Both the position numbers and the translations under genes were made by a program. A stretch of DNA of 64,000 nt from Botryllus schlosseri (Eukaryota): positions 16,866,001 through 16,930,000 of the forward strand of contig CM119371.1 in NCBI GenBank assembly GCA_051294905.1. The letters run 5' to 3'. The notes under the pieces were generated by a model. It was given only the letters and a program-made list of their open reading frames with translations, was not told where the DNA came from and searched no databases. Below are positions 18,581 through 45,350 of the stretch, piece after piece. Numbering within the stretch: the stretch's first letter is position 1; each line of letters begins with the position of its first letter.

Positions 18581-20178
18581 CAGGGGTGTCAAACATTCGA
18601 CCGACCGCTGGCCGCATCCGGCCCGCCAGACCATTTCATCCAGCCCGCTAGGTCAGTCTGACTAAATTGAAAAGTCGTGTATTATACAGCGCATTTCTGA
18701 TAGAAGTAAATGTCAAACATGTTCATCGGCCAAATTATAACCATCTGACGATAGTGTTGAGTTTTCACTCAAGTATTCAGCAGGATCACGTCGGTGTATT
18801 GACACGACATTGTGGAGAGGCAAAAAAAGTGCACACTCGGTTCAGAGTCTTTTTGGAGAAAATGGACCAAATAATAGTTATTCACAGAAGGCGGAAAAGA
18901 CAATCCAAAACCGGCACATGTAAAATACAAGTAGACATGTAGCTACAAGAAGAATAAAATTCAAATATATCTGGTCGCACTGCTGCTTATGTTACTCAGA
19001 CCCAAAAGGACGCAACCCCAATCTGCAGAGAAATCGAATGGTGAATTGGTGATTTTGAAAATGATTAACGAAATTCCAGCCCCTTCGTTTACAATCTCTT
19101 ACATTCCCCACCGCGAATACGCAGGTCCAATGATGCATCACGATTAAAGCAATAAGGAGAATAATGAAATATTTCAGCTTATATCGCCGTTGGAGACTAT
19201 GTTTTAAGTCAGTGGTTCCCAACCTTTTTCGTCTTGTGCCCCCCTTGGCCGATATTTGAGCTAAAATCCCCCCTATGAAAAAGTTGCCTTTGACTAAAAA
19301 AGGTGCTTTCTAACGCACAACCATTTGTTGACTCAGCAATTAATGGCCAAACATATTCAGATTAGATATGTCCGAACTATATCGAATTCGGACCGCACTA
19401 CACTGTGGTAAAGTACCGTTAAATTTGACCTGTTTTTGCCGGTCGAGTAGCCGCTGACGAAAAATAAATCCGCTTGCTATGGACTTGAGTTGAATCGATG
19501 AATTTGGTATGTGGTTTTTCACGTTACCTCATATGTTGGCTTAAAAAGTTGAAAAATTTCACTAGTGGCCTTGTGCCGAATTCGGCTAGACTTTTTAGCT
19601 TAGTGGCATTTTGATCGAGAGGCTGTCGCGGGCCCGACGAAATCGTTTCGTGAGCCTCACTTTATCAGGGGGTGTAGTATCTACGGAAGGCATACAAACA
19701 TACACCTAGCTTAAAATCCGCCAAAGAAACATACAATTGTAAAGAACTAATTTCTACTTGACAGTTCTATACCATAAAAATCTAAAAACCTCGTGAACCC
19801 AGTGTATCTTCCGATACAATGCCAAAGCCAGATTCTACATTAAAAATTTAAGCCAGATTCCCCCCTAAAAGTTTTAAAATTCCCACCGAATGGGAACCAC
19901 TGTTTTAAGTGGTTTATAACTGTATTCAATTGACCAATCATCGCATTTTGCCAATTCCATTGTTTGTGAGTAATGGTGTTTCTAGAATAGAGCCCATATG
20001 ATTCGTGATATAGGTCTAATATGTAATGATATTTTGCACAGCAGTTGATAACAAAGCATTCCAATGAAAAACAAAGGTATGTATTTTGAGTTAACATTTT
20101 GGATCATTTGACTCGTCCGGCCCGCAAGTGATCAAAATTTGTGAATCTGGAACGCGACCGTTGAGGTTGACACCCCTG
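18581..20178. mobile_element. hAT MITE inserted in the LINE endonuclease
   Basis: TIR caggggtgtcaa/ttgacacccctg, TSD ttctaatt/ttctagtt. Confidence 0.87.
19210..19882. mobile_element. hAT MITE nested in 18581-20178
   Basis: TIR cagtggttccca/tgggaaccactg, perfect TSD ttttaagt. Confidence 0.88.
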
Positions 20179-22932: not shown

Positions 22933-23535
22933 CTTCATAGCAAATTTCCCTACTAATAGTGCCAATGACGACGAATGGATGGTCATGGTGCTGTAAGTCT
23001 TCACTTTAGCAATGGCTGGAATCGATTGCGCAACGGACAGCGCATCAGCTGCGTCACAATCTACCTTCACTTTTATCGACGTGACTTTCGTCATATGATG
23101 AGCCAGAAGAGGAGCGCATTGGCGTAGTATTCGAAGATCCCTGACATCGGTAATCGGTATTCTTTTATTCTTCGTTCCAATGAACTTTCGCAGTAAATTT
23201 TGTAGACCACACAACGTGTCTTCATCTATATATTATTATCATAAATAGTGGATTCATATGGCGGTCAGGCAGATTAGCGCTTTAAGCTCACGTATATTTG
23301 ATATTGAAGTTACAGCTTTCCATTGGTCTTCGTCTGCAATGATTGCCACTCCAAGCAAAATATAATTGGGAATCTCGGTGGAAGATAGTATTTCCCGTAG
23401 AATCTTGTAGTTTTTGATTTTTTCCATTGAGAGCCAATGAAATGCAGCTAGGATATCCTGAAAAGAATTGAAATCAACATTGTATAGTTTGAGTTTAAGG
23501 TACATAGGTTTACAGATGCTTTTTAACATCTGTGC
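22933..23535 (-). pseudogene. Putative downstream exon of the NACHT/NLR gene with internal stop/frameshift
   Basis: cag acceptor near 23536 and AAG|gtaagt donor at 22933. Two adjacent Leu/Ile-rich ORFs (23529-23254, 23214-22918). Confidence 0.55.
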
Positions 23536-23676: not shown

Positions 23677-24052
23677 GTGAAGCGAGTGGCGCAGTGTGCT
23701 AAGCGACACCGTCACGACTCCAATGGTTGGTGGTTCGAGTCTCGGCTCTGCCATGTTTCTATGTGTCGAAGGTTTATCTGGGCTCCTCATCGCCGATCCC
23801 GCTGTTAACGCAGCGCCTTGAAAAAGCCCAGAGGAAGAGTGAGCCGAGCTCCGAAGTCGGCAGCAGAGACCAGCAAGAGGACGCATGAAAGCGAGAGCGA
23901 ATGGAAGAGTGGATGTGCGCGAGCATGAAAGTCGCCCAGAGCATGCAAAAAGCAAAGAAACTGAACTTTACGAATGCATTGTCGTGGCGCACAAGGCCTA
24001 AACATGCGTTAAGCGCCACTGTCGTTGTTGTGTGATTATAATAATAATAATA
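23677..24052 (+). mobile_element. tRNA-derived SINE family C with (TAA)n tail
   Basis: A box gtggcgcagtgtg, B box ggttcgagtc, ataataataa tail, 12-bp TSD acatgtacgtgt/acatgtaggtgt. Confidence 0.87.
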
Positions 24053-25884: not shown

Positions 25885-27059
25885 AGTAGTTGATATTTTA
25901 CTCACTCGAATAGCTTCGCTAATAAATCTATAACGAAGATGGTGGTCCTTTATGGTCTTTCGCGAAAATTTTCCGTGATTTGGATCAAACGTCATTGAAA
26001 TGTAATGAGCCATTGCATAAGCGTTGTTCTTATCAGAATCGCGTATTACTAAATCCACTGTTCCCCTTGTGGCTGCATCGTGTGCGGCGGCCATTACAAA
26101 CTTCATCTGGTTGCTTCCAATATTCTCATTGCGGGAATGGTGTGCGCCGAAGTAGTCTATCGCATCAACAAGAATTTCTATAGCGGACATTGTTTCGTTC
26201 TCTTTGATTTGACCTGCCAGGTGTATCAGCAGAGCCGGCGTCTTGCACATGTCTTTTATATATGGATAAGAATACAGAATTAGACCAACACGTTGCCGCT
26301 CGCCAATGAGTCGTACGAGGATATCCATCACGTCCTTTTTGTCGAAGCCCACGATGTTGACGATTTGTACGGTCATGACATTTGGATATTTACGAAGCCA
26401 TTGTGGCGTCGTAGTACAGATTACCCACATCCCTTTGTAGATGTTGCACCGAAGAAGGTTAATTATTATGGAAAGGGGGTGTTCTGGTTCGTCTATTCTT
26501 ATCTTTGCTGCTATATTTGAGTCACTCTCGTCTACGTCAATGTCGTCAATAACGACTACAACTTGAGTTGGATTATCAGCTATCCATTTCTCTAAGGTTT
26601 TTGATGTTTCTTCAGTTTTTAAAATATTGTGGAATTGATCCCTAAACAACAGATCAAATGCTCGGTATTTCCTTTTCCAGTTAATGTCATCTCGTTTAAT
26701 GAACACGGTAAGTTTGATATCTGAGGGTCCGACAATTTCACCTCTCATAGCTCGATTCGCATACTTTATTGCAGTGGTAGTCTTCCCGTACCCTGGCCCG
26801 CCTACCAGTAGCACCGTTGTTGAGGTTTGGTCATTCGGACATTGATGTACCGTCTCCAGCGACACTGCGTTGTGTACCTCCCTTTCTTCCTCACTAGCCT
26901 TATTCGCACTATTTTTCCTCCATTTCCCAAATGCCAAGCGTCGATAACCGATGTCGTACTCATTCTTAAGTAGTGTGAGATCGATTTGTGAATGGTCGTT
27001 TTGCTCCTTTAGGTTTTCAACTTTCTTTTTCGTCTCTTCGTTAATCTTATGCCCGATAC
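25885..27059 (-). CDS. NACHT NTPase exon of an NLR-like gene (probably pseudogenised)
   Basis: Walker A VLLVGGPGYGKT, Walker B VVVVIDDID, sensor VICTTTP, IVGF and MCKTP motifs. Frame is open upstream to the phase-1 acceptor acag|GT at 27059. Confidence 0.88.
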
Positions 27060-28599
27060 CTGTTGTGACATTTGACTTAAATCTGTGAACATGGATAGCG
27101 TAACGGTGGACAAATCACGGTCTTCAAGTGAGTTAACATAATATGGAAATATAACATGGTGCACGAAGTTGTCGAATTTTATTTCTCGTGTATGTGATAT
27201 GGTAACGACGACCATCACTTAATTTCGGCACTGCATAATAAATTATTTGCAGCTGCGCTATAGCCTACTGCAGTAATTGGCATAGATTGTATAAAACGTA
27301 CTGTAGTTATACCTTAATTAAGGTTAGTTGTATATCGTTTGTAATATATTGAGCAATTTTAATTTTTCTGCTAAGCTTATCTGCACCAATCTGTCCTAGG
27401 AGATACACGCAATTGTACGTTATTAAAAGCTTATATGAAGCTGGCATGACCTTGTATGATGTCATTGTCGATTGTTACTGCATGGTTCGTAATTGTGTCA
27501 CTATATTCATTGATATTGTGTTAAGACCAACGACGTAGCCTACTGGTCATTGTCCCGTAATGTAATGATGGGAATTGCGAGCCTTTTTCGAATCAAGAGG
27601 AGAAATGTTCTAAATAAGCATAGAAATGTCAGAATAAACCTGAGTCTTGTACGTGCAATATTGACTTTTATTTCATATCTGAGAATAAAGTGGTTGTCTG
27701 CGTTCTTCGGTGTCGGAATTGATCGGAATCCTACAATCACAATTAGACCCGGTTTTACAACAACCCATATTCAAAAGTGTCAAAGTCCGTATATCCACAG
27801 ATTATAATCAAGAAGACGACACTGCCTCACTTGCCTCCTCTGACCCTAATCACTGACGTATCACACCTTACACTGAACATATGTACTGCTGTATAGTGAC
27901 AATGTTTATCTCCAATAAGCTTCCCCTACGCATGTGATCATGGGTCCGTGCATTTAAGACGAACACAAAGACGCACATATTATCTCGTATACCTGATGAA
28001 AGTCTCAAATTTTGTATGAATCTTAACCTCGCTAATTAATCAACCAGGACTATAAAGCCATCAGTAAGACCATGCAACAGCAAAAAACGCATTAACTGCA
28101 TGTAAAAGCTGCTACTGTTAATTTTACTGTTGTCTATATCTGTTGGAAATGTTAATTGTCTTACGCTTCGAGAAATATGAAATGGTTATCCTTCAAATAA
28201 GATGTTACTTGCATAAGATAGATTTGACTCAAGTTTCGCATGATCCAATACCGCAACCAGCATGATTGTTTCGAGTTTTACAGAGATAATGTGGAGCACC
28301 CGATGAATACCATGTAGTGAGTTCGAATTTTGAATTGGTGCTACCATGACGTCATGAACTTTCAATGTTAAATGGATTTTCGAACGTGACGTAACCATTA
28401 ATTGACATGCATGACTCTTTCGTAGTTAAAATAGAAAATATAGAGCAAATGTGGCTCTTCCGAGGAGAAAGGTTCGCTACCCTTGCCATACGGACTACAG
28501 TGGCGCCACTCCGTTGCAAAGATTACTTCTATCGCAATTTACAGTCTCACATACTATTTTCGTGTATCTGGACAGGGAAATATTCGCCTTGTATGTTAC

Positions 28600-28665
28600 C
28601 TTTGATCTCCGGAGGCGCGTTCCAATTATCAGGTGAGTCGGCCATTTGTCTTCCCGTTGGTGATT
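28600..28665 (-). CDS. 66-bp phase 1-1 exon of the NLR gene (ESPTGRQMADSPDNWNAPPEIK)
   Basis: cag acceptor, AAG|gtaac donor, open frame in phase with the NACHT exon. Confidence 0.65.
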
Positions 28666-28727
28666 CTGTTTTTATCGGTTGTGTGTCAAAGGTTATGCAT
28701 TGCAAAGGATGAATAGAGTATTACTAC

Positions 28728-28796
28728 CTGGATTGTCCGCATATTCGATTTGACGCCTAGGGCACGGCGGAGGAACTGGACATGCGGTGTCATTCA
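28728..28796 (-). CDS. 69-bp phase 1-1 exon of the NLR gene (NDTACPVPPPCPRRQIEYADNP)
   Basis: ttccag acceptor, CAG|gtagt donor, 62-bp intron to the next exon. Confidence 0.6.
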
Positions 28797-29189
28797 CTGG
28801 AACATATTCATGTTTGGATTAGCCATTTAAACATTTAAATCGTCATTTATTAACAAAAAAGTGCTATAATGCTTTGTTTTAGTTGCCAAGCGGTGTCGTT
28901 TTTGATAGAGGGTGACTTCTACTCTGCCGTACTACTGCTTAAACCAGGGGTTCCCGAATTTTTTATTATCTTGGTCAAGTATCCGATTTGTAGATGTTCC
29001 AGGGCCCACTTCTAAGGTTGGTAAACTGATCACTAAAATGGGTCAGCACCTCCACGACCCCCACCCAAATGTCAAACGACGCCCCTGTTGAAACCACTGC
29101 TGGTATATAGTGTAAATGACGATGACATTGTACTGAGTACAATCTTAAGAACCTGAAGATAGAAGGAAGGTGTTGGAGTTGTCTGTGAT

Positions 29190-31485
29190 CAGGGCATGGT
29201 AAAGTATGATCTGTAATACAAAATTTCAATACTCCATACCCGCCTCCATCATTCTATATCATACTGTCAATTTACCATACCATTGTAATATTCTCCCATA
29301 CAAAATTTGATTCTTTTTCCACACTTTCGCATTTGCCCAACCTCTCAGAGATAATATTCCATTTTGATGTTTTGAAAATGTCCGGCATTTATTTTCCAGG
29401 TATTTTGGATGTAATTATCAATTTAAAATGATGATACACCAATTTTATCCCAAATTTATTTGTGTCATATATCAGAGATGGATAGGTTGCCTAATCCTCG
29501 AAGACGAAACGTAAGATATATGCGATATTAGTTGGGAATCACAGCAAAAGCTCATGACATGTAAGATAAATGTGACAACGCACGGGTAGCAGTAACATGG
29601 AGGGAGGTGTTATCTACAAAATAACATAAAGCAAATCTATTGTTCCATTAGAACAGACCTGGGAAAAGTGCGACCCACGGGCCGAATGCGGCCCGAGAAA
29701 TGTTGCTTGGTATTCTAAACATAAAACTTTCTTTGAGGATGACTAAAACCATAGGATGTATCAACTGAACAGGAAATTCGGTAACTTTGAATCCAGCTCA
29801 TTAATATGCCACGATAAAAATGCGTACGTTCCGCGCTTGCGTAATCCAGATTCAAAATAAATGCAATGTGGCAATGTCTTACTAGCAATTGAAGTCACAA
29901 CAAATCACTCTTTCCATATAGTTTAGTTTAAATCTTCATCGTTGCAATTGTTACTTTGCGCAATATACGGTATGTATTAAAATTGCTAAGTGATACGTTT
30001 CCAAATCTCTAATTCGGAAAACTGGTCAATCGGTGCTCGCGGTTACTGAATCATCAATTCAATCACCCATAAAGTATTAACGGCATGCCAAAAAAGGAAG
30101 CCGAAAACTGAAATTCAAACAAGGCATAGACTTAAGAGTACTAAATATTTGTATACTTAAGTCAGGGGTGAACCCGTCCTTTTAGTTTTTGCCGAGCATC
30201 GCGCAGAGATTAAGGATTTTAAATAAAGTCGGTCTTGTTATAAAAACACGAAACATTCGGTCAAGGGAGGGCAAAGTTTAAAAAAAAAACGCTGGCTTCG
30301 CTCAACATCGAGGCTATTTAAGCTGGAAGGAAGCGACCAAGAAAATGCTTTGTACCATTGCATATACATTTCAGTGCAGTGGTCCTCGAAATGCATGGGG
30401 GCTTGAAAGCATCAGACGGGGGCGCGAAGCGGAAGTACATTGAATTTATTCCCCAGCCTATTGTTATTGCTTCGTGTATTGTCCCACAACAGCCAGAACC
30501 ATCCATACCATCCAACTAGCCGTTGGGTTTGCTAGCATTCTGGTTGCACTTTTTAATATTTTGCGGTATCATGATAAGGAGGGCGCGAACTATTTCACCG
30601 TCATAAAGGGGGGCGTTCCTACAAAAGTTTGAGAACCACTGTTTCGAATCATGACGGCAAATAGATATATTGTTAATTATACGTCACTTTCTTATTACCT
30701 AACATCGACACATTCACTGAGCCGCATTTATTAACAATTTAATTTAGAAAAAAGATTAAAAAATACTGGAGAATACAGCTAAAATTTTTCACTCGGCCAA
30801 CCAACATATTTTCCACTTTTAATTTGTCCCGCGGAGTAAAATAATTGCCCACCCCTGCATTAGAATATATATCTTAAAATACAATTTTACGTCGGGGATT
30901 ATTCGACATCGGATAAAAATTCAGATTCATCCGCTAATATGTAGGTCAGACTCATTAGCTTTATTAACAAAAATCGGAGTATCCACTCTTCCACTCATTT
31001 ATCGGAGATAATCAGATTTATTGAAGTTGCAATGGGTGTTGGAGGCCGCCATGGCGTTACATCGCTCGAAGACAAGCTACATATATTTGAATTACAATGG
31101 TGCTTCTGTCAACTATAGATGTTCTGTGATGATCATCCGAAAGATGCGCAGGAGATGACTTCCAAGCACATCAGATTGACATTATTATTCATGTAACTGC
31201 TACATTCACAGTGTCTACGATTCAGTTTACGGGGTGGAAATTTCGATAAGCGAAATGTAAGCTGTAACGATGTAACGCAACAGCGGTCGAAGATCGTTCG
31301 TTGTTTTTATGATATTCAGATTTTATTTAATATTATATCCCTTCATGTGCGAGTTGCACAACTTTTTTTCTTCAAATGCATTGTATCTTCTGCAGGTCAT
31401 GGCGATGGAGATTTCCCCACCATAGTCCACCATGCCGAAATTTCATTCCATACTATACGATAGTTTCATATCATAACATGCCCTG
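29190..31485. mobile_element. hAT element with CCATAC repeats, containing nested MITEs
   Basis: TIR cagggcatg/catgccctg, perfect TSD tctgtgat. Confidence 0.87.
29654..30857. mobile_element. hAT MITE nested in 29190-31485
   Basis: Ends cagacctgggaaa/ttgcccacccctg, perfect TSD cattagaa. Confidence 0.82.
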
Positions 31486-33242
31486 TCTGTGATGAAGCAA
31501 TTTACTCCAGCGTTCAGGAAATACGATTATCCTGACAATTTATTACGTTAACACTATCTGCAATACAGCTGAACTGTACAGTTGTCACGTTCACCACATG
31601 ATCTTTCAGATATCCCACCTATTAATTGGAAATCTGTTGCTTGGGCTCGTCGATGGTATGTCATTGTCTGACTCGCTGTGCTGCGGCGCTCCGATTGTTC
31701 GAAACATTGGCAATTTCCAAATTTGAGGACGATGTATGTGGGCTCTAGCGCCCTAGACACATTATAATTTATCTTTTTAGAACCAATGCGACAGTAGCTT
31801 TCGCATAAGTCCATTTCTGCTAAATGTTGTACTCATAGTATAGCTATAGAATTATCATATATGTTTGCGAAACGACCAGCAATTATTGTGGTTATTTGGT
31901 TGAACAGACGGGAAGTTACGTGTTCACCTAAATCCGTTAGGTTAGTAATCTATACTCTACCCCAGTGCTTTTCAACATGTGGGACGGTACGCACTTGTGC
32001 GCATGAAAATCCTGATGAGAGCGGATGAAAATCGTAAATAATTATCAATTTTTATGACGTGGAATAATGCAAATAAACCTATAATAAAAATAATATAATG
32101 ATATAATAATTTATGGAGGACCGAGTATAACAATATATCATTACTACACCAGGGCGCTGTACATAAAAGGCAATAAAGTATAAAAGTAAAAGATGTGTAT
32201 AAAAGACGGAGTACATAATTGTAGGGCGGAATGAACACTACTCTACTTCGAACCTAATGGGAAATTCAAGTACAGTGACTCCCTAACTTATGTAGTTGCG
32301 AAGCAAATGTAAAACCTTGTTTGACTTACGACGCACCACTATTAATCGTAGCTTTGACAAATAACTTTGTCTCTCACAAGATGTAGTGAATTAATATTTG
32401 TATAACGTCAAATTGACTTTCTGCTTTCTCTCGCTGAACAATCGTCATATTTTCGTAATAACATTTCGATTACCGCGAGTCATGGGGGTTTTAGTAAATA
32501 TCATTATTATAGACTCACATTTGCAAGTTACTGCAACGCAAATTTTTCCCTTCAAGGATTAATAAAGTATGAGTCGCAAAGGGAAAAATTTTCGGATCGA
32601 CACGGTGCCAGATCGATCTGTTAATAGGTATGCGATATTTGCTGAATTTATAGCAAGGACATTCTGCTATAGTTTTTATATATACAAAGTCAGTGTGTTG
32701 AGTACTATTATAGCCAATAGGCAAGACACGCATAATACATGGCTTGATCATGAGAATGTACCGATCGTTGGTTTGAATTCATGATAAGATTTGTCCGACT
32801 GGTTTGTCTTTAAAACATAGTCGAAGACCGTTAGGCTGAACTACTGCAGGGATGTGCAACGGGCGGATTCGGGCCTATGAGACGCATTCATTTTGAGCCC
32901 AACCCCTTCTGCGTTTTCGCACACGGAGACGTTAAGTTTTGGGCGGGCAACATACCGCTGATAAAATGTGGCGCCTAAAACATCAGCGGCGAAAAAACAA
33001 TGGCCAGAAATGACCGTCGCTGGATGGTCATAATTTCGATATGGATATGCTCCGTTGTAGAAATTGTCGACACCGAATAGTCCTGTTCTTGCGATCTGAG
33101 TACACAGTAGTACAAATTTGACGCCCAAAGGAATTTAATTACCCTAATTTGCAATCGCGTGCGCCAGACATGTTTCGTAGAACTGTGTTGTGTACAATAG
33201 TGATGTGCGCGTTCTTTATGTCATACAATTTCAATGTCATAC

Positions 33243-33417
33243 AATTTTTCATTGTTATGGAGATTGGGATTTGGACGCAACAATGTTGTCTGGCGAAACG
33301 AGAGAGTGGCTCAGGACGCAACAATGCTGTCTGGCTAAACGAGATTGTAGCTCAAGAGAAAAAGAGCCAGACAGCATTGTTGAGTCCCAATGCCAATCTC
33401 CATAACAATGAAAAATT
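33243..33417. repeat. ~50-bp inverted repeat enclosing a 41-bp tandem duplication (small MITE-like unit)
   Basis: aatttttcattgttatggagattgg...ccaatctccataacaatgaaaaatt, with two ggacgcaacaatg.tgtctggc units. Confidence 0.7.
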
Positions 33418-33839
33418 CGAGGCTGATTGTGGGAGTTCCAGGGCCACGAGCGGAATCAAATTTATATTTTCGTAATCAGTGCAGAGTCAGCTTTCGATTG
33501 TTACCCGTTTTACCAAATTTAATGCTCGGCAAGCCGGTCAAAAATGACCGTCAAATTGCCTGTAGCCAAATGGAAATTGTGACGTGATCAATTTCACTGA
33601 GGCGTGAGATTTGCCTGTGTCGACACCATATAGGACACTTTGATTTCAGCCAATAACCATTTTTCACACCCGTAAAATTCGCTGCAGTTCGGATAGGAGA
33701 GCTGAACAGTTCGTAAGATCTAGCCATCAAAACACTAGTAGTGGCTCAACAGCAGCAGCTGTTGGCTGACAACACTGAAGTTGTGCGTACACTGCTGGTG
33801 ACACATCGTGTTGCTTCATTCTGACATTGTTGTCTACAT

Positions 33840-35438
33840 CAGTGGTTCTCAACCGCCGGTCCGCGGACCGGTGCCGGTCCGCGACGACCTTCCTGCCGGT
33901 CCGCCATGTATCTTACAATTTTATACCTTGATTTCAAGATGCTACAAGTACGAGCTGACTCGCCAAACCGCGCAGTTTGCACGATCATTCGTTTTCGATA
34001 TATTCATTTCGTGCAGAACGGTAACTACCGCACCCAAACCCCCCTTCTGAAGGAGGCCCAAAGTGATTTCGTGAATGAACATAAATTATAGAGTATTTCT
34101 TTGAAATTTCATCCAACTTTTAAAAAAAATTCGCGCTTCTCCCGATTTAGTGTCACTAAATGCCTTGATTGTTGAGTGTCCTTCCCCCAAGAAATACGCA
34201 TGATATATAGGAATAAGCATTCCGGCGTCAGCCATTGCCGCGCTGCGACGCACCAACACATGATGAAGTTTAGGCGAACATAGGACTACGAAAAGTGTGC
34301 CAAAGATTCGGCAGAGAGAACACCTTGGCCGAAAAGGACTGCCCTTTGTTGCCTTCGATATATATGTGTCACATTGTCCATAGGCACCTAAATGGCTGGC
34401 GCAGAATTTTGCTGTCCTGACAATCTGTACCCCACAAGACAAATACCATCCCACAGAGAACAGTTATTTTCCAGTGAAGAAATAGTATTTTGGAATCGTG
34501 TGCGCATTCTAGTTTAGTGCGCTTGTGCGATATCAATATCTATTCACTATATATAACAGACAGTACTTCACGAAATAATGACATACAACGAAGTAATTAT
34601 TCCAACACGCCCGCCGAATATGTTTAATATTGATGACGTGTCGAAAATTTTCCAAGACAACACCTTACTCAGCTCTACCGGAAAATCTGATAATTCTGAG
34701 AGGATAAAAAATTAGAGCAATATATACGCAATTAATAATATTATTGACCGATTCGGTCATGAATTTTAAAAAATTTCCGCGCTTGGCGCGATTAGGCTGC
34801 TTAAACTCTCTGCATACACGGAGTATAATGAATGTGTTCACCGGTGAAGAAATACATCTAACTGTAGGAGGAATAAGACCAATGTTTTTTTGGGGGGGAT
34901 TGGCTGAAAAAGTGGTTTTGCGACCCCGGTTTTGTGGATGGCCAGGTGTAGCTGTAGTCAGGTGTTTTCCTGCGGCGCATTGTATCCGTAGTAGCAAGAG
35001 TAGCATACGTCTGGTGTTGTGGGCAATGAGCATTGAGCAAGGTAGCACGAAAAAGTGCTTGGATCGATTCCGAAACACTTCTTCTCTCGATATTGTCGAA
35101 GAGAAGAATATTAATCCAGTTGGCGTCGTCGGTTACATCCATGGCCTACGGCGCGAAAGACTGTAAAAGACTCTCGGCGGTAACACGTGTATCTGCGCAA
35201 GGCAATTTTACTTCGACTCAGCAAACTCACTACCGTACAATCACATGGATGCCATCAAGATCATCATTAATTTCGATCAAAATCCTCAAAATGTCACTCT
35301 CTAGCACCATATACTTGCAAAAAAACGGCAGTATACTTTACCTTTTCGGTTGATTTCAATTTTTGAAAGTCCCCCGGTCCGTCAAGTATTTTTCTAAATT
35401 TTACCGGTCCGCGAGGTGAAAAAGGTTGAGAACCACTG
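33840..35438. mobile_element. hAT element with CCGGTCCG repeats, possibly carrying a decayed transposase fragment
   Basis: TIR cagtggttctcaacc/ggttgagaaccactg, perfect TSD gtctacat. KKCLDRF and YL(A)KNG-like remnants at about 35050-35330. Confidence 0.85.
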
Positions 35439-36228
35439 GTCTACATCACAATTTTTCCTAATGCGTTCCTTGAAATAACAACCAACGCCAACACAGTCTT
35501 GCTTGAATTTGGATATTGCGGTGGGTTGAGCATAATACCATGTCAACTTATTCGTTTCATTTGAACGTTTATGATTCACAATGAACAGACAATGGGTCGT
35601 CTTCAACGGTAGGCACATAATGTAGGCTACAATAAGTCACATGTCAAATGATAAGTTCACAGACAGTCAAATATCTACGATATAAACGAAATGCAGGTTG
35701 TCAAAGAATTTCATTTTTTGACAAATTTTGACGTATTTTTGAAATGTCAAAAAACGTCGCCCACTAATTATAATTCATAACTGAGATTACGCACCGTATG
35801 GAACCTTGGCGAAAACACGGTAACGTGACTGCATATCAAACATGATTAGGGTTGCATTGGGGTAACGTTGAAATACGGGTTATTTTTGAGGTTATAAAGT
35901 TCCATGCGACAGTGACCCATGCAGAGGTGTCTCCTTCCAAACTGTCGATTGTCATTGTACCACATATTCTCAAGTAACGGTCAACCGCTACTTGAATGAA
36001 AAGCCGGTACATCCTCCCGTTTTTTTTTTTCAGGCGAGCTACCCAGGTGGGTTTCATAGCGCTTAATCTATGTATCAACATACTGATATCTCAGAACACT
36101 AATAAAATTGTCTTGACGAGTTATAGGCCCTGATTACATGTTTTATATTTTATCTTCATGGCAAAGTGCCTCAAGCAGACCTCTCCCCGATTCGGACACC
36201 GTATTGAAAGAAAGAGCATCATACTCAC

Positions 36229-36375
36229 CTTGACTCGCGGGTGGTGCTTCTTCCTCAGCACCGAAATTATTGTAAACGATCTTGTTTACATTGATCTGAT
36301 CTCCGGTCACAACGTTAACAGTGCTATTTGCGAACCGTTGATTGACATTTTCACCTCCAGCCAAAATGGCGGACC
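36229..36375 (-). CDS. 147-bp phase 1-1 exon 2 of the NLR gene, encoding an N/V/Q/G-rich amyloid-like motif
   Basis: tcttag acceptor, CAAG|gtgagt donor. Peptide GSAILAGGENVNQRFANSTVNVVTGDQINVNKIVYNNFGAEEEAPPASQ. Confidence 0.75.
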
Positions 36376-36590
36376 CTAAGATACACGTTATTATTGTAAT
36401 GCATTCTAGATTCCATACATTGCATTTTAATAAAATGATATGATTCTATTATGTTCTTCCATATCTTTCGGCATCTTATACACAAGGAAATGAATGTGTT
36501 GTTTCTAAACAACTTTAAAACTGTTTTATATGGACAAAATTAATATGATTTTTACATAGTCAGCGCTCAAATACAAATGCCATTACGTAC

Positions 36591-36657
36591 CGGGTGATAA
36601 TGATGTAGGCAGTACATCAGCGTCACCAGAATAGTGACCTCCACCATCTTCTGCCAT
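36591..36657 (-). CDS. First coding exon (MAEDGGGHYSGDADVLPTSLSP)
   Basis: atcATGG start context, CCCG|gtacgt phase-1 donor. A ttttcag acceptor at 36703 implies a further upstream UTR exon. Confidence 0.68.
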
Positions 36658-37589
36658 GATATTGATAACCGTGGTACTAATTATCTAGGGTATATCACAA
36701 TGCTGAAAATACAAATATCAATTATACATTTTATGAATAATCTTTTCTGCGCAACAGGCCAAGACTAGCAGTCCTGAGCATAGAAGATCTGATGGCTATA
36801 TTCGAGCAACCTGTCAACAGTCACATGTTCCTAATTTTGAATACCCTATATTGTTTGAAAATGATTTGTTCAATAACAAGTTGTATGCATTATACACCAT
36901 GCGATCAGTTTGTCGGACATGACTAGGCGAAAGTGCGATAAATAAGATCGAAGTACTAGACTGGGCAAATGCATGGATTAGTGATGTACCGTCTCATCCC
37001 TGCCTAAATATGAGAATCCCATGAACAAATACTTGCTAGCAGCAGCACCCACCATCTGACATTTTAGCAGCATTTTTCTGGCTGATTGGCCATGAAATAA
37101 ATGAAAACAAAATTTATTTTTATTGTGTCTACACCTTTTCGATCTTTATGTCTATAGAAAGTTTAAGATCTCCATAAACCAGTGCCTCAAGGCGGCTCTA
37201 CTAAATATAGGTAACTCGGTCGTCATATCCATTCCATTTACAAGAGCACCCCCCTACCCCCCCCCCAAAAAAAAAAAAAAATCCATTTCGTAGACTAGAG
37301 CAAAGGCACACAAAGGCCTTGTATAACCCTAGTATAATAATTCGGTCAATAAAGATGTTGGCTTATTGCAGTGGTACGTGCCATTTGCCATTTCCAGAGT
37401 AACAAACACGCTGAGCTCAGAAATAGTACATATCTGAATATTACAGAGACTTGATGACCCGGAAAGAAGATGCATTGCCTTCTATTACAAAGATGTTGCT
37501 AACACAGTTAGACCAGTCCGGCATTGACAACGTTCAGTTGTCGCAAATGACTTTTATAAGTTTGGCAGATACATAACCAGTGTCTAGAA

Positions 37590-38445
37590 CAGGGGTGGGC
37601 AAAGTACGGCCCATCGAAATCATCGAGAAACGTGATAGAAATATTGATAAAAATGTGCAGTAAAAAATCAAATTATTAGAGCGACTTTTTAAATACAGTT
37701 TATCATGAAATTTATTAGGTTCATGCCTGTGTTTGGTAGATTCGTCCTCTATATGCGCAGTTAATTACAAATCATTCATAACTTCGGTCTCCACTCATCC
37801 ATAATGAGTATGATCCAAAGCAATACAAAAGCGGAAGGTTGAAGATGAATGATGCTGCAATCAATAAAGAATCAACTTATAGGTGGGTCTACTTCTGTTC
37901 CGGCGTCGATAGTAACACAATTACTATTACTTGTCACAATATGACATTATTATAATGAATTCGTTGCAGCAATTCAAAACACCAGAACAACGGAATTATG
38001 TTTGAGACAATAGTTAATTATTTTGATTCGTCCTCACAAAAGAACGGGAAAAAGGCAAGTTAAATACAGTGAGCCCTATACTGAAACTCACTTAAAGGTA
38101 ACATGTTGGTGCCAAATTGTGTGTTCCTAAGTTTGGCCAGACGCAGAATCAACATATCTATAAGCCGATCGTTACTCACATATTCAAATTTCCATCCTAT
38201 CCGAAAAATCAGCCCAACGTTTTTACATCCCTTATTTTGACGAATTGATTCAGGAAGGCCATAGTTTATCAAATTTCGGTAATGTTTCTGATGCGTGTGC
38301 GTGGCTGGAGCATTAACAATGTGCCGACCTTTGTATTGGTCTGAATCCACCATTAAATTTGTCCGACCATGGCTTCTCTGAAAAAACGCAGTCGGGGAGC
38401 GTTAGGATGCTTTAGTGTAGGGGTGTGCAATGATCGGGTCCTGGA

Positions 38446-38486
<41 letters not shown>

Positions 38487-39044
38487 GACTTGCGAGGCCA
38501 ACCCCTACCGCGCCAGGACACATTATGTGTTGACCAGCATAGCGATAGTTGAAGCATCGATGGCAAAAATTGCCGGCGATAAAACCAAAATTACCGTCGC
38601 TGGTTGGCAAATACATTTTAGATACTGATATGTCCGATCGTTGAAATGGTTAGTACCGAATAGTCTGAGTAGAAAGTCAATACAAATGTGACTCGTGGTC
38701 AAATAACACACTCTAATAATTTGAAATCGCGTGAGTCAGACATGTTCCAATAGCTGCGTTGCGTACGACTGCTGTCTGTGCGTTCTCGATATCGTATACA
38801 TGCCTTTAAATGTAGCATATAGTTATTTAAAAATGCAAACGATTTGATGTGTGACGCTTGGATGGCGAGATGCCACTAAAACTAGCATTTGAGTCGCGGT
38901 CAGAATGGTTAAAGAACCACTTCTTTTTATATTAGAATAAAAGCATGCGTTATGGCTTATAATTACGATTTTACTATAGTGCGGCCCGCAAACCAATTCA
39001 GATGTTGAATGCGGCCCACTAGCTGAAAAGTTTGCCCACCCCTG
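37590..39044. mobile_element. hAT MITE (possibly composite)
   Basis: TIR caggggtgggcaaa/tttgcccacccctg, TSD gtctagaa/gtctataa. Confidence 0.75.
38450..38481. repeat. (GA)n microsatellite
   Basis: About 16 GA units. Confidence 0.95.
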
Positions 39045-39914
39045 GTCTATAATATGAAATTGCGATGCATTGCGGTATAACAACTGTTATACGTCAAAAA
39101 GCTAGGCATGTGGTAGTATTTGGTCAGGGGTGGGCAAATTTTTTGTTGTACACGGCCGCATTTGGAATACTTCGACAGCATAATGCCGTCAGCCATCGGT
39201 GGGCTGACTAAAAAAGATCATTTTGCCGATCGAATCCCGAAATACCCGTTCCGAGGTCCGGTTTAATTGGGTTTACCAAGTCAACCATGCCCCATTCCCC
39301 CTTGCTAGCACCAAAATCCCCATTTCACGTCAAGGATGTAATTTTTATACAATCCCCTGACATGAAGGGGGACTAATTACTAACAACGAGGACAATTTGC
39401 TGCCTTCGAATGACATTTTAGCTTTCTTTAAAAACGAGGTAAATTCCTCCGAAAGTGGACGTATGTCGTATGGTATCCTCACCGCAAATTCTTCATTGCT
39501 TGATAGCTAGTAATCATATCATGTCTAATAAATATCAAACCCATTTTGGAACGAATTTAGTTCATGAAAGTCTGTAACATTGAAATAAGTGACTTCCTTG
39601 ATGTTGAATAGGCTTTTCGAAGTACAGAACTTCAATATTGCAGCAAACAAACGTTCATATTGTTAAATTTATTACACTGGAAGCTTTTCGACTGGCTCTC
39701 TTCAGCAGTGATTTTGCATACGAGAAGACAAACTTGCAAAATTGGAAACCTCACGCGACACCATAAGTTTTAGTTGTCAGTCCGGTTTCCGTTCCGCAAG
39801 CCAGTTCGGTACTCGTTTTTCAGGTGTTGTGTTGTATGTGCATGGGGTTAATGGTGCTTAACTACTCAGGTCTTGTGCACCAGACCACGTCGAAAATAAG
39901 ATATCCGCAAATAA

Positions 39915-42900
39915 TTAGATTAATCGGGTAGCCAATACGAATTCAATGACAGTCTGAATTGTATATGGACTGGATAATAGGGCCCGTACTGTCATGTCGA
40001 CATGGTTCCGTCTAGCTGCACTCTTCAAATATTGTCTCTGAGAAGCATATACTGGGCACACAAGCAGAAAGTGTTCGATCATCTCTTCGGCCTTGCACGT
40101 GTGGCACAGGCCATCTTCGTGGCACTTTAAACGATGAAGATGAGAATTAAACCGCCAATGTCCCGATTTCAACCTCAATATAATGGAGAAGTGCCTTCGT
40201 GAAAAATTCAGCGGCGAAGGAATATCTGCGATGGCTGCTTGTATTTTGTGATATGCGGACCCGTCATATATGACGAGTTGAAGTCTTCAATCCATTTCTC
40301 GCGGCATATGGATGCTATGAACGTTTTCACTTCTGAATTAGACAGTTCGACCAGTTCTTCACTGTCATCTGCGTAATCCGTGGATGCAGCCGCTCTTGCT
40401 AGTTCGTCAGCCGTTTCATTTTGTCCAATTCCCATGTGGCCAGGGATTCATATCAAATTTGTCTTCACTCCTTTTCTTTCGAGATCTGCGATAACATAAT
40501 AATATCATATATTAGTTTGTTATTAGTAGAACCGGGGGTAATGGCTGTAAGGGCACTTTGACTGTCCGATAGGATGGCAAGTTTTTGAGATCCTAGATTT
40601 TCTTTTGCCCAGGTTAACCCACGCAGAATTGCAACTAATTCGGATGAGAATACTGATGAATATTTACTGAGAGATTCGCTGTGAGAAAACGGAATTTCTT
40701 CGACTACGAAGGCTGCACCACATCGATGAATAGTTTTCGACCCATCGATATATATTTTGACATGGTTCGAGTACGTTTCTGTGATGTAACGATTACACTT
40801 TGACTTAGCAATTGTGGGTAGGTCAGACTTTACATTTCTTGATTTTAGGTGCAAATCTATTCGACAACATATTTCCTGCCATGGCGGGAAACGAACTACT
40901 TCATGGTTCTGTAGATTAATTTGCATGAGCTTCGCATTTTTAATTTTCATATTAAAGGTCATAAATAACGTCGAGTCCGGGAAGATTTCGTGCCAAGAAT
41001 CCTCAAAGACTGTTGCGCACGGGTGGTTCGGCGATGACGCTATAACAGTTCGATAATTATAGCACGCTTGCAGATAACTCAATGGTATGGGTGGTTAGGC
41101 GCAGGAATGTTGAAGAGCGAAGGATGGAGTACTCTTCATTGCCCCGTTGCATATCCGTAGAGCGGTATTCTGAATTTTTTGGATGCAATTCATAACATAT
41201 AAAGGTGAAAACAAATACGCCTCGAACCGTACTCAATTACCGATCGGATCATAGATCTGTAGACCGCTAGCAAGCAAGGTGTGGAGGCACCCCATGTTGT
41301 ACCACTGAGCATTCGTAGTAAGTTCATTCTTTTTAGGCAATTTTCAACAACAGCATCTTTGTGCAAACGATAACTCAGTTTAGAATCGAAAATAATTCAA
41401 AAGTATTTACAACTTTTCTTCATTGGCAGTTCTGTCATACCTATTGAAAATTGGACAGGTGGCAGTTTTCTGCGTTTTGTGAATATAATTGCGGCAGACT
41501 TCTTGACATTGACCCTCAAACCCCATTTTTCACACCATTGATACAGGTTGTTTAAAGAATTCTGCAATTTGGACGAGATTGTCATTACATCTAAGCCAGT
41601 TTCCCATAGGCAAGCGTCATCCGCAAATAGATTGATACTCGTATCGATTTCATCGGGGAGGTCATTCATCATAACAGTAAAAATTATCGGACTGAGAACA
41701 CTGCCTTGTGGAATCCCATTATCTAAGGAAAATGAATCGGATAAGCTGTCACCTACCCGAACTTGGAAAGTACGGTTACAGATGAATGAGTAAATCCATC
41801 TCAGCATGTTGGCTGAAATGTCCAGTTTGTGGAGCTTGGAGATAACGCCTTCTCTCCAAACGGTGTCATAAGCTTTTTCTAAGTCTAGAAAAGCTCCAAC
41901 TGTAGATCGTTTGTTCCAGATGCCTTTGTAGATATCGTCATGCAGGGCTAAAATACAATCTGTGGTTGAGCGTTTAGTCCTATAGCCGCATTGAACTGGC
42001 GAAATTTGTTTTGTACTCTCTAACCACCAACGTAGTCTATTAGATATCATCCTTTCCATAATTTTACACATATTGCTTGTTAGGGATATTGGGCGATAGG
42101 AGTCCGGATGACTAGGTTTTTTGTTTCCTTTTAGTAATGGTATAACTGTTGAGTGACGCCAGCTGGCAGGTCAATTTCCATTACTCCATGTAGCATTGAA
42201 CGATGAAAGCATGCGACGGAGACAAAATTGGTCCAGATTGTTGATCATGATCATCTGATAACATACGCCGTCAGGTCCAGGAGATGCACTTTTCTTCGCC
42301 TTCAGCGCTTTCTTCAATTTCTTTATTGTGAAGGGATTATTCATGTCTGAAGCTTGATCGGTTTGTACCAATAGAAGCGTTTCTCTTTCGAATGCTTCCC
42401 GTCTGGCCACCGATTCAGGATCGACGTTATCATCGCTACTGAATGAGATGAATCTACACGCTAATGCATTTGCTTTGTCCTTATTGCTTGTAAGTATGTG
42501 ATTTCCAGATGTAAGACTACTTACTAATCGTATTCCATGATCTGGATCCGGACATCGATCGGACGACTCTCCAGACCTTGGATAATTTGGCTGTACTGTT
42601 CAGAGATAAGCAAAATGATTCCCAACAGGACTTTTTAGCGGATTGTATCACTCTTCTAGTTTCCGCTCTCTGCCTTTTGAACGCTACAACAAGGTCAATG
42701 TGAAACGAGGTCTTCATTTTTAAGTAAGCAGCTTGTTTCAGACGAATAGCTCGGGCACACACTTCATTCCACCAGGGAATGCAACATTTTCTTTGAGGTT
42801 TCGTGATTGTAATACTGATTCGAGCTGCTGCGATTATTGCTTCTGTGATGTCTTGTATTGTCACTCGTTCGTTGTTACACAACAGAGAGAGATTCCGATT

Positions 42901-43633
42901 AGCAGACCATCGAAATTCAGACCATTTTGCTTTGTGTATAGCCCAATATTCATAATACTGCGCCCCCACATTTGGTGAGATCGAAATATGATTGAAGATC
43001 AAAAAAATGGTCACTTCCTAAAAGATGATCCGTGACCACTGTCTCAATCTTGTGTCCTATGTCCTTGGAAGCAATTGTTAAATCAAGCAGTGATGTTGCG
43101 CCAGCATCATACGATATGTTTAGTCTTGTTCCTATATTGGTGTTTATGACTACCAAATCTTTGTCGTCTAATACCTCATACAGATGTTTTCCATACCGAT
43201 TACCATTCTTGGCACCCCAGAAGGAGTGGTGTGCATTGAAGTCGCCCACCGCTACGAATTTAGAATCGCATAAAGAAAAACACTTTTTCGTAAGCTGCAG
43301 AGAGACTGCTTTATTCGGTGGTATTTAGATATTCCTGATGGCGATTTCATCCAACTTTATGAGTTGCACCTCTATCGGGAAAATATTGTGAACTTCGATT
43401 TCCCGGTAACTTATATTTTCTTTCACGAACAAGCAAACTCCTCCGCCGTGGATGTTGCGATCTTTACGTATTAAATTATACTCAGGAATTTTTGGAACAT
43501 ATTGGCTAATCAAGTGCGATTCCTGTAAGGCTATGATCTCTGGCTTTTCCAACATACAATTTTCAAGAAAATGTTTCAATTCGTTGAGTTTACGATACAA
43601 GCCTCGACAGTTCCATTGGACTATATTGAAGGT
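39915..43633 (-). pseudogene. LINE ORF2 (endonuclease, reverse transcriptase, RNase H, zinc finger), frameshifted
   Basis: IVQWNCRG, LQESH, GDFNAH, SDH, SPGPDG, FLDLEKAYD, GIPQGSVLSP, LFADD, IYIDGSK, SDSQSA, GIGQNETADELA and CHTC..EHFLLVC. Confidence 0.93.
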
Positions 43634-44282
43634 GTCGGTGTATGCTCGAGGACATTATTGTCACCATGATCATGATGATGTGCGGACTGGTCGTTGCAGT
43701 GGCGGCTCGTGACAATATCGGGTGGTGGGGCAAGGGCCGCAAGCGACTTGTTATCAATATGACGTCACAGTAGCGTTTTTCAACGTTCATGATGGCCACA
43801 TGAATTTCCCGTAAACAATGATTTTTAACGTAGGTGCCGCGAGAGGTTTGCCGGTGGCGTGACTTGAAGTGCGGTAACAAATGTTTTATTCATTGTTTTT
43901 TATTCAAATGATTATTTTACAAAATGTACGCGAACTAAGAATCGTTCCCATGCCACGAATCAATCATCAGGTTATCCTTAGTAGCATGCGTTATGATTTC
44001 GTGGTAGAGATTACGCAAGCGCCGAGTAAGACTATACCAAAAATACACAGACCAACTACCTACAAAGAGCATTCGCATGACACCTTGTGGTGTTTTAATC
44101 GTTCCATGCTCAGCAATTCTGTAAAGTGCTGCAGCGCCTCCGACCCGATTTGTATATGGATTCTCGTCCCGAAAGCGAGTCAAATCGATTTGCCCTCGTC
44201 CGAAAGTGTTTGGTACACGATCCTGATGCGTTACGACCAGGGGATAGGCAATCAAAGCGGTGGCACCCATAAACGTAAAACA

Positions 44283-45350
44283 TTATAAAAAGCCAGCTGT
44301 TATCCATGGAAGATTGAGCTGATGCGCGTAGCAATGCAAAAAATGCGCATGCGGGTAAACTTCTTTCATTAAAACTTGTACGCTATGTCGCGATCCGCTC
44401 ATGACTGCTGCGCCGTCGTAGGTTTGCGCAATAAGTTTCGACTCAACTGAATAGGGCTGTAATGTTTTTTTTAATACGTAAGAAATTCCGACAGCAGTGC
44501 GATCGTCAACAGCCACAAAGCTGTGGAATCGTTCGACTGGCATACCAAATTTCGTGAACCGAAAAATCACGACTAGTTGTGACAAACACGTAATGTCAGT
44601 TGTTTCGTCAGACTGAATAGATAGAAATTCAGCGTCAACAATCTCGGTAAACAAATGCTGTAGAAAGATGTGATATATCGAATCAAGCACATCATTTTGA
44701 ATAGTCTTTGAGGTACCCTTAGCTACTGTCGCGGTGTCGAGATGTTCGCGCAAAATGCTATCAATGGAAGCCGTGTATTTAATTAGATCCAAAAATACCC
44801 CCCTATTGAGAGAGCATTCCTTCTCATCGTGGCCTCGAAGGGGCAATTCATGAACTCCAATAAATTTAATGGCATCAATCACCCGAGAGAGAACATGCCT
44901 ATTCTTATCTACAAGCTCATTGTGCTTGCAGACTGATACGCGATAACTTTCATTGAGCTGCGACATTACATTTACTCTGCCAAACAATTTATATTTAACT
45001 GCACTAGCCATGTGCACTTGGGATTTTTGGTGCGTTTTCAGACGCTCTGACAAATGCTTCAGATCGCGATAACCAATTTTGTTCCAACAAGAGCCACTGC
45101 TTCCGGTACCGGCACTGTCAAATAAAAGACAGTAAAAGCAAAACAAGGCGTTTTTATCCTCGCCATAAGTAAGCCATTCATTTTTATCGAAATGCGCTGA
45201 AGAAAAGGCACGAGTGCGCTTTCCTCCGGCGTACGATTGGATCAATGGGCAATTTCTAGGCTGATACGGACCTAGTCGCTTTACCTCTAATTTTTGCTCT
45301 AAAGGCAGCTGGCTAAACGGCGTACGGAGCAAAGATTCAACACGATTCAT
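44283..45350 (-). CDS. hAT transposase N-terminal half (TTF-type zinc finger plus DUF4371/ZMYM1-like), truncated
   Basis: WLTY..FCFYCLLF, H.KS..H, LPLRGHDE, SKTIQND, SDETTD, QTYDGAAVMSG and HCYAHQLNL. Similarity ends after AHQLNL. Confidence 0.9.
   Translation of the reverse strand: MNRVESLLRTPFSQLPLEQKLEVKRLGPYQPRNCPLIQSYAGGKRTRAFSSAHFDKNEWLTYGEDKNALFCFYCLLFDSAGTGSSGSCWNKIGYRDLKHLSERLKTHQKSQVHMASAVKYKLFGRVNVMSQLNESYRVSVCKHNELVDKNRHVLSRVIDAIKFIGVHELPLRGHDEKECSLNRGVFLDLIKYTASIDSILREHLDTATVAKGTSKTIQNDVLDSIYHIFLQHLFTEIVDAEFLSIQSDETTDITCLSQLVVIFRFTKFGMPVERFHSFVAVDDRTAVGISYVLKKTLQPYSVESKLIAQTYDGAAVMSGSRHSVQVLMKEVYPHAHFLHCYAHQLNLPWITAGFL

Follow-up and report, generated by a model that had tools for sequence, protein, structure and literature searches.

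A proline-poor N-terminal motif under selection in the effector position of NACHT receptor genes in Botryllus schlosseri

A NACHT gene of Botryllus schlosseri raises the question of what its protein signals through. The gene lies on the minus strand of a stretch of 64,000 nucleotides (the whole stretch is referred to here as the window), and the initial annotation had read it as an NLR that carries an amyloid-like exon where a death-fold domain might stand. We evaluated the gene model, the motif and its spread through the genome, and the possible roles of the motif.

The predicted gene and its exons

The five minus-strand exons proposed initially could be joined in a single frame (508 codons, no stops) with four GT-AG introns between them, but the 3' end given for the fifth exon was wrong. 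Position 25885 is not a donor (GG comes next), and the last seven codons of that model were intron sequence. The NACHT exon ends at 25906, followed by GTGAGT, and this donor is also kept in all five paralogues with a complete NACHT exon (L002-L006). With the corrected end, the model extends via four further exons to a stop; the predicted gene has nine exons and one open frame for an 803-residue NACHT protein, with all splice sites GT-AG on a frame check. The intron 3' of the NACHT exon contains a dispersed repeat.

The coding part of exon 1 (36591-36657, minus strand, as for all exons) comprises an ATG and 22 codons and ends in phase 1. The start at 36657 is supported by an in-frame TGA 5' of this ATG, and an exon-1-like exon lies about 240-300 nt 5' of most top motif copies. 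Exon 2 (36229-36375, 147 nt) carries the motif peptide at 36349-36260, exactly as claimed. Exon 3 (28728-28796) encodes a proline-rich linker and exon 4 (28600-28665) a further linker; exons 2, 3 and 4 are all phase 1-1. The two linker exons are native to the NACHT clade of this gene, with similar exons in four (exon 3) and three (exon 4) of four paralogues. Variable disordered linker exons separate the motif from NACHT. Exon 5 (25906-27059) encodes the NACHT ATPase, with the Walker A sequence GGPGYGKTT and a match to PF05729 (E 2.3e-12; 47.5 bits against a cut-off of 26.7), and an Atlas search with this exon gave a NACHT cluster as the top match (score 0.96). The frame check further predicted exon 6 (23292-23457), exon 7 (22933-23225, preceded by a 66-nt intron) and the last exon with the stop (12503-12784); exon 8 (13254-13421) is 168 nt long and phase 0-0. 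None of exons 6-9 has a Pfam match, and any leucine-rich repeats encoded there may be too divergent for Pfam.

We also examined the 138 minus-strand frames of at least 30 residues upstream of NACHT (27060-40000). None of them matched a death-fold, TIR or BIR effector domain, and the sole hits were two unrelated ones below cut-off. This search ruled out a hidden death-fold exon, and the reported lack of a death-fold or TIR domain was upheld. The window holds neither a second NACHT exon nor an alternative leader.

When three bulk RNA runs were searched (X4, X7 and X8; 6-13% of each), depth on exons 2-5 was zero or near zero and there were no splice-junction reads, including for the path from exon 2 to NACHT that the initial annotation had proposed to check. 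In the DNA-like run X1, exons 1-2, exons 3-4 and NACHT had an equal depth of about 45, and the 7.4-kb intron was bridged by no contig of that run. We conclude that the DNA bears out both the gene and its peptide, with splicing as a prediction.

Conservation and identity of the motif

The genome contains 150 matches to the motif. A NACHT exon is listed within 40 kb of 116 of these, and in 113 of the 116 the motif lies upstream of it on the same strand. Phase-1 AG and GT borders of the motif exon were retained in all 30 of the best genome matches, indicating that the exon is more than a chance reading. The conserved core (36269-36373, minus strand; alignment columns 1-35) spans about 35 residues, in which hydrophobic positions alternate with Asn/Gln. 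Over 28 copies, dN/dS was 0.16 and 0.14 in its two sub-blocks (about 0.15) against 0.75 in the linker of the same exon, values that are lowered because protein similarity guided the choice of these copies, which are not independent of one another. The window copy compared with five near relatives gave a core pN of 0.07-0.13 and pS of 0.34-0.44. The motif core is under purifying selection. An origin of the exon as a transposon was ruled out, since the linkage to NACHT is strand-specific and selection acts at the codon level.

The peptide had been described as rich in N/V/Q/G with linkers richer in proline, and the 28 copies agree: N, Q, G, V and I make up 58% of the core and 36% of the linker (figures without a proteome background), while proline makes up 0.7% and 7.8%. 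The core contains 8% Lys and 3% Leu. Tandem copies of the motif were seen at C1:11762576 and 11763734, and at C1:16397420 and 16402293. Structure prediction of the monomer gave no confident fold (pLDDT 52, pTM 0.11), and that of a four-copy complex no usable model (score 0.02), which bears neither way. These data support the motif as a module that occurs throughout the family, is under selection, is poor in proline and rich in N/V/Q/G/I, and takes the effector position, with no death fold.

As claimed, the canonical RHIM core is absent: the tetrad (V/I)-Q-(V/I/L/C)-G and matches to PF12721 were found in 0 of 28 copies. At the position of the invariant RHIM glycine, seven of them have another residue, Arg in six and Glu in one. 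The loose cRHIM tetrad V/IxxG, a weak pattern, is present in 20 of the 28, window copy included, and the G-phi-Q-phi-G signature in none. A RHIM profile search of the genome gave nothing above the cut-off (10 candidates scored). Comparison with RHIM and PP models, suggested initially as a check, gave no match to the motif, and neither did HET-s models or solved fibrils; no solved RHIM fibril appeared among 20 PDB rows with E up to 10. Matches to EAD10 (Pfam) in three of the 28 copies (best E 0.0098, below cut-off) and to MthK (PDB, E 0.5) were taken as chance, and an Atlas search with the peptide returned only unnamed clusters (score at most 0.80), with no lead. Judged by its sequence, the motif is not a canonical RHIM.

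Movement of the 5' cassette between genes

Conservation in paralogues, as initially expected, holds for the family at large but fails among the closest NACHT paralogues examined. The window NACHT belongs to a seven-member clade (96/92). Each of the four paralogues examined there starts with a leader rich in Pro and Lys, and some 20 kb of upstream DNA contained no copy of the motif. No such leader is present anywhere in the window. The 5' cassette extends approximately over 35760-36950 (minus strand) and consists of upstream DNA, exon 1, intron 1, the motif exon and the start of intron 2. By blastn it is about 67-77% identical to motif-bearing genes elsewhere (L032-L060), introns included, and NACHT genes from several distant clades begin with it. 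The homology of the cassette stops near 35760; this end point, the intron homology with a paralogue (L064) at about 31620-31910 and the repeat depth together place a putative chimeric junction in the repeat-rich interval 31900-35760. A genome DNA search with exons 3-4 returned only the window itself; this search was too insensitive, as local comparison did find homologues. Since the closest NACHT paralogues lack the motif and start with a Pro/Lys-rich leader, the window gene is most likely chimeric, through a leader swap.

The motif also occurs outside NLR genes. On C8, each of the four copies is followed by NHL exons at a distance of 4-8 kb downstream, no NACHT being listed in the vicinity, and in the one copy checked the motif exon is in frame with the NHL exons. 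The front end of the C8 gene that we read is the NLR motif cassette plus two short linker exons. TRIM-NHL proteins are NHL-repeat propeller proteins (PF01436), and the C8 genes likewise have C-terminal NHL repeats (PF01436); unlike TRIM-NHL, no RING, B-box or coiled coil was seen in the one copy read. These four genes count as one event, duplicated in tandem. That an unrelated protein family carries the motif speaks for a self-contained module.

Readings of the motif and comparison with known systems

A matching effector elsewhere in the genome, as predicted initially, was not found. None of 70 caspase matches lay near the roughly 25 motif copies without an assigned gene, and a search with MLKL_N gave no match, but its controls likewise gave none; a divergent C-terminal motif copy would escape these searches. 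The copies without an assigned gene include four at C3:21.62-21.79 Mb and others at C3:20.09 and 20.18 Mb, C3:58 and 97 kb, C16:21.12 and 21.90 Mb, C11:11.80 Mb, C5:3.18, 24.96 and 24.99 Mb, and C10:27.54 Mb. The protein databases searched held no full-length motif carrier. HMMER, run against 1.84 billion representatives, gave 16 motif matches; of the 14 examined, three were unrelated repeat proteins and 11 were short, unspliced ORFs carrying the motif exon, the two long matches lying outside the 14. Word-index protein searches, which are weak negatives, gave no longer protein for two NACHT exons and one genomic ORF for the motif profile.

We see an even chance that the motif is a portable, homotypic and probably cross-beta signalling tag. 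Exons 1-2 would then be a portable 5' cassette encoding a disordered leader with the motif of about 35 residues, which would serve as the homotypic tag of most NLRs of the genome. A ligand may switch the NACHT domain into an oligomer and cluster the tags; these would stack as parallel beta-arches (cross-beta or amyloid-like) and act as templates for the same fold in a partner that bears a similar motif, the way NWD2/HET-S, BASS or PGRP-LC/Imd do. Through the leader swap, the window receptor would have been connected to the common output of the family, and the NHL genes may supply this pathway with a further type of sensor, or with a regulator. Position, selection, composition, the absence of a confident monomer fold, the tandem copies, the loose tetrad and portability favour this reading. 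The empty RNA runs, the failure to find a death effector with the motif, the missing matches to RHIM, HET-s and PP models or solved fibrils, the exchanged glycine and the Lys content count against it. More tentatively, and at somewhat below an even chance, animals could here have a second amyloid signalling motif besides RHIM, on a swappable cassette: the main output of more than 100 NLR genes, transferred also to a distant NACHT clade and to NHL-propeller proteins, in a fungal-style amyloid immune network of an invertebrate chordate.

The motif might instead be a short linear docking motif, a portable tag that forms no fibre but contributes a beta-strand to some folded protein (an adaptor, kinase or ubiquitin ligase). 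This is unlikely, although it accounts just as well for position, selection and portability, it suits the Arg at the glycine position in six of 28 copies, and the second protein class with a C-terminal motif copy that templating needs did not appear in our searches. However, a conserved stretch of about 35 residues in which hydrophobic positions alternate with Asn/Gln is long for a docking motif, and the tandem copies and composition suit amyloid signalling motifs. Less probable again is that the cassette spreads by donating a promoter and a phase-compatible start codon, the motif having a structural or auto-inhibitory role in the main NLR family alone, while the window and NHL genes carry it as a passenger. 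The whole 1.2-kb cassette with its upstream DNA has moved, beyond the exon alone, the junction region is rich in repeats, and NHL genes are abundant on C8, making a single chance fusion plausible; the values for one NHL-linked pair (L054 and L059: core pN 0.08, pS 0.23, intron divergence 9%) settle nothing. Against this, variable disordered linkers before NACHT and the use of the cassette in distant NACHT clades are unlike a packing element, and the window copy has retained its core. That exons 1-2 are left over from a different NLR gene, or result from a join in the assembly, and are unspliced to a headless and possibly pseudogenic NACHT, is least likely of all, for while the RNA reads are absent, the ancestries of cassette and NACHT differ and the long intron is unbridged, every phase is compatible, the 803-residue frame is intact, the window offers no other leader or NACHT exon, and the depths in X1 are equal.

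Whether RHIM is the sole signalling amyloid in animals has been posed as an open question (PMC7889193). The Botryllus motif supplies a candidate of defined extent, 35 residues, in many natural variants. A natural control is provided by sister NACHT genes that have or lack the tag and by the non-NLR carriers, and peptides and foci assays can thus put the question to a direct test. The motif also points to the missing output of the Botryllus NLR receptors. Even if no amyloid is formed, exon cassettes would swap effector ends within an animal NLR expansion.

The motif-NACHT architecture itself has precedents in amphioxus, fungi and bacteria, and is not new to animals. Amphioxus BF82280 is described as a RHIM-NACHT-repeat protein, alongside other invertebrate RHIM proteins, in an account in which tunicates apparently lack RHIMs (Kajava et al. 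2014, PMC4262963). As in BF82280, a short motif with unstructured flanks takes the death-fold position before NACHT in an invertebrate, and as with invertebrate RHIMs, where the motif class of BF82280 is found on varied immune architectures, several protein types carry it (PMC4262963). Unlike BF82280, the Botryllus motif has no RHIM tetrad or Pfam RHIM match, and about 100 receptors bear it on a dedicated symmetric exon.

Like NWD2/HET-S, HRAM, PP and BASS, it is an N-terminal motif in the size class of about 25-35 residues on a NACHT receptor (10.1101/2020.01.06.895854, PMC7889193), and, as in the HRAM/PP/BASS type, it is short, conserved and set in disordered flanks N-terminal to the NLR ATPase. 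BASS, HRAM and PP motifs are described as biased towards N, Q, G, V and I and poor in Pro (10.1101/2020.01.06.895854), and the composition of the Botryllus core is in line with such a bias. It differs from them in having no G-phi-Q-phi-G or Pfam sequence match, and its Lys content stands against BASS motifs described as Lys-poor. Unlike the fungal and bacterial systems, no adjoining effector gene with a C-terminal motif copy was found. The tandem copies resemble ZBP1 and HET-s. The loose VxxG core recalls the cRHIM of insects and crustaceans (PGRP-LC, PGRP-LE, Imd, SRB2), where one motif is likewise common to structurally unrelated receptors (PMC13506858, PMC9387487); unlike cRHIM, the Botryllus motif has a variable glycine and no known adaptor, and its carriers are NLRs and NHL proteins.

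Gene model and the motif exon

The five minus-strand exons of the initial annotation comprised 508 codons, were stop-free in one frame and had GT-AG ends at all four intervening introns; the position given for the exon-2 peptide (exon 2, 36229-36375) was confirmed. The 3' end of the fifth exon had been misplaced by 21 nt: the donor GTGAGT begins at 25905, and is common to the paralogues L002-L006. The corrected model has nine predicted exons in a single frame (803 aa). The proposal of an animal NLR stood for its NACHT domain (exon 5, 25906-27059), which scored above the Pfam cut-off and whose closest NACHT cluster in the Atlas was predominantly chordate; no LRRs were detected, the four tail exons, perhaps too divergent, being without a Pfam match. 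The reported absence of death-fold and TIR domains also held, since none of 138 minus-strand frames (at least 30 aa, 27060-40000) matched such families. The customary Walker B consensus is hhhhDGLDE. The corresponding region of the window gene and its close paralogues (26530-26560, minus strand) reads hhhhD-D/G-I-D-V, a divergence that may change ATP hydrolysis.

When we searched the 495.5-Mb genome (window included as C1:16866001-16930000) with the 48-aa exon-2 peptide, we obtained 150 scored matches from 151 candidates at E up to 10; for 79, E was at most 0.001. An AG, a phase-1 GT and an exon length divisible by three were retained in 30 of the 30 best matches, the window copy counted. NACHT places were pooled from three genome searches into 192 distinct ones; one search contributed 50 of its 83 rows, the other 33 being removed because the frame end running into an intronic repeat alone was matching. 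A NACHT lay within 40 kb of 116 of the 150 motif matches (none was listed for 34), the nearest being downstream on the same strand for 113, upstream for 2 and on the opposite strand for 1. A motif match lay up to 40 kb upstream at 104 of the 192 NACHT places, both lists being lower bounds. The motif exon is a family-wide exon.

We aligned 28 copies of the 30 best, excluding the near-duplicates L048 and L049. Pooled dN/dS was 0.16, 0.32, 0.14 and 0.42 in columns 1-11, 12-18, 19-27 and 28-35, respectively, and 0.75 in the linker of the same exon. As the aligned copies are related and were picked by protein likeness, the within-exon contrast is the safer reading. The exon-2 peptide is a real, selected and portable N-terminal module.

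Probable chimeric origin of the gene and the cassette on NHL genes

Sequence comparison suggested that the window gene is chimeric. Its NACHT falls within a clade of seven clustered genes (support 96/92, in a tree with several long branches); identity to it is 58-65% for the five closest members and 43% for the sixth. None of the other six had its own upstream motif match among the matches listed. About 20 kb of upstream DNA was examined for four of these six: the motif profile found nothing, while exon 3 had homologues in all four and exon 4 in three. Three of the four begin with a short ATG exon, then a Pro/Lys-rich exon with a phase-1 end; a DNA profile of these three leaders detected the fourth paralogue (E 1e-16) and had no match in the 64-kb window. 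These loci (L061-L068) lie upstream of NACHT genes at C1:16.43, 16.67, 16.72 and 17.00 Mb. The two exons are the putative native leader of the clade, and the Pro/Lys-rich one presumably resembles an SH3-binding motif. Within the seven-gene clade, L005 is broken by a stop within its NACHT match and L007 by a truncated NACHT exon.

Exons 1-2 of the window gene, introns too, share about 1.2 kb of homology with cassettes elsewhere in the genome. The window cassette nests among those cassettes in a DNA tree, with a sister that lacks strong support. The NACHT exons beside them (e.g. C1:11755350, C5:24245511) belong to the main family, and the sole main-family NACHT aligned in full (L029) was 24% identical to that of the window. 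Since a phase-1 end is common to both leaders, the swap would preserve the frame; the junction should lie in the repeat-rich interval at ~31900-35760.

The pooled list held 31 motif matches without a same-strand NACHT up to 60 kb downstream. A further NACHT search mostly returned known places, apart from C1:23763172, which adjoins one of the 31. Among the NACHT-less copies, the full downstream DNA was examined for one, C8:3917728 (L054 and L069), where an LTR retrotransposon comes after the motif exon, followed by a pair of short exons and then by NHL repeats (PF01436, best E 2e-14). From exon 1 through the motif exon and the short pair to the first NHL exon, all five exons are predicted to join in frame with GT-AG introns. 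All four C8 motif copies have a same-strand NHL exon 4-8 kb downstream, and these exons are the four best matches of the genome NHL search. No NACHT is listed in the vicinity of the four genes (C8:3863738-4016207; L054, L059, L069), which are tandem copies stemming from a single event and belong to an NHL family with about 50 loci besides these. Between L054 and L059 the motif core showed pN 0.08 and pS 0.23, at an intron divergence of 9%. The second linker exon was matched in three of these genes and also, weakly (E 0.22), at another NHL gene without a listed motif; it therefore seems to belong natively to the NHL family. An in-frame TGA occurs in two listed C8 matches, within a part of the query frame that is possibly intronic, so not every C8 copy need be intact. 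The cassette appears to precede a non-NLR family as well. The retrotransposon at C8:3917728 sits in the intron that follows the motif exon and is Ty3/gypsy-like (L054:2489-3132, L069:1-4624), with reverse transcriptase and integrase pieces in several frames and LTR pieces 94-98% alike.

Proposed mechanism, partner searches and expression

The motif, whose position, selection, composition, disorder, tandem copies and portability we observed, may be a homotypic cross-beta tag; this is the most likely reading, with about an even chance of being right. NACHT oligomerisation would bring the tags together, and the clustered tags would template a partner. We infer tag stacking, partner and output by analogy with NWD2/HET-S, BASS and PGRP-LC/Imd. 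The matching effector predicted elsewhere in the genome was not found, though a C-terminal copy in another exon context is easily missed by the queries used. None of 70 caspase matches in the genome lay near the about 25 motif copies without an assigned partner gene. Among the protein-library hits examined, the motif occurred only in short unspliced ORFs. Many caspase matches each sit within one long open frame, and ten or more nearly identical copies (257-aa frame) occur across several contigs, as if mobile-element-borne.

The motif might instead be a non-amyloid docking motif, which we consider possible though unlikely. We find it improbable that the cassette donates a promoter and that the motif is a passenger in the chimeras. 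Least probable is that exons 1-2 are an unspliced relic.

Bulk RNA was sampled from three runs (6-13% of each, likeness 90): depth was zero or near-zero on bins with exons 2-5, and no read joined exons of the window gene. Such near-absence is compatible with silence or with low or tissue-bound expression. In X1, a run that behaves as DNA, exons 1-2, exons 3-4 and the NACHT had equal depth, and no contig bridged the cassette exons to the rest of the gene.

Other elements in the window, on the minus strand where frames are concerned, include a broken LINE-type element (39915-43654; endonuclease, reverse transcriptase, RNase H and zf-RVT pieces), hAT transposase remnants (44283-47052; DUF4371, Dimer_Tnp_hAT), a LINE ORF1- or gag-like 217-aa frame with Cys/His knuckles (49014-49667; no Pfam match at E 0.01) and, in the 9.5-kb intron before exon 8, a probable decayed LINE fragment (17100-18640; no Pfam match). 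Direct repeats of 287 nt, 98% alike and 4348 apart (56727-57013, 61075-61361), enclose a 430-aa frame (58327-59619) and a 190-aa frame (60519-61075, part), neither with a Pfam match; together these are possibly an LTR-bounded element. A highly transcribed dispersed repeat at 23680-23930 (depth >300 in the RNA runs X4 and X8), with loose ends tRNA-derived in look, is probably a SINE.

Comparison with RHIM and other signalling amyloids

As the initial annotation had noted, the canonical RHIM is absent: neither the core tetrad nor G-phi-Q-phi-G occurs in any of 28 copies. No member of the 28 matched the RHIM, HET-s or PP families of Pfam, PF12721 found nothing above its cut-off in the genome, the motif profile matched no fibril among solved structures, and an AlphaFold2 monomer of the motif gave no confident fold. 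The BASS motif tables (10.1101/2020.01.06.895854) could yield a closer match than Pfam's. No description of the motif was found by title or abstract start, a coverage that leaves out most subscription journals, and the passages of PMC12261475 on animal-related terms contained no scan of animal NLRs.

Relevant passages of Daskalov and Saupe 2021 (PMC7889193) pose the question of whether RHIM is the sole metazoan signalling amyloid. Those of Kajava et al. 2014 (PMC4262963) describe tunicates as apparently RHIM-less and report a RHIM-NACHT-repeat architecture in amphioxus, so a motif-NACHT architecture is already known in animals. The looser cRHIM pattern, V/IxxG in the pertinent passages of PMC9387487 and PMC13506858, fits 20 of the 28 motif copies, the window copy among them; across the 28 copies the Gly of the pattern is replaced by Arg in 6 and by Glu in 1. 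At 58% N/Q/G/V/I and 0.7% Pro, the composition of the core agrees, with the exception of 8% Lys, with the bias that amyloid signalling motifs of bacteria and fungi are described to have.
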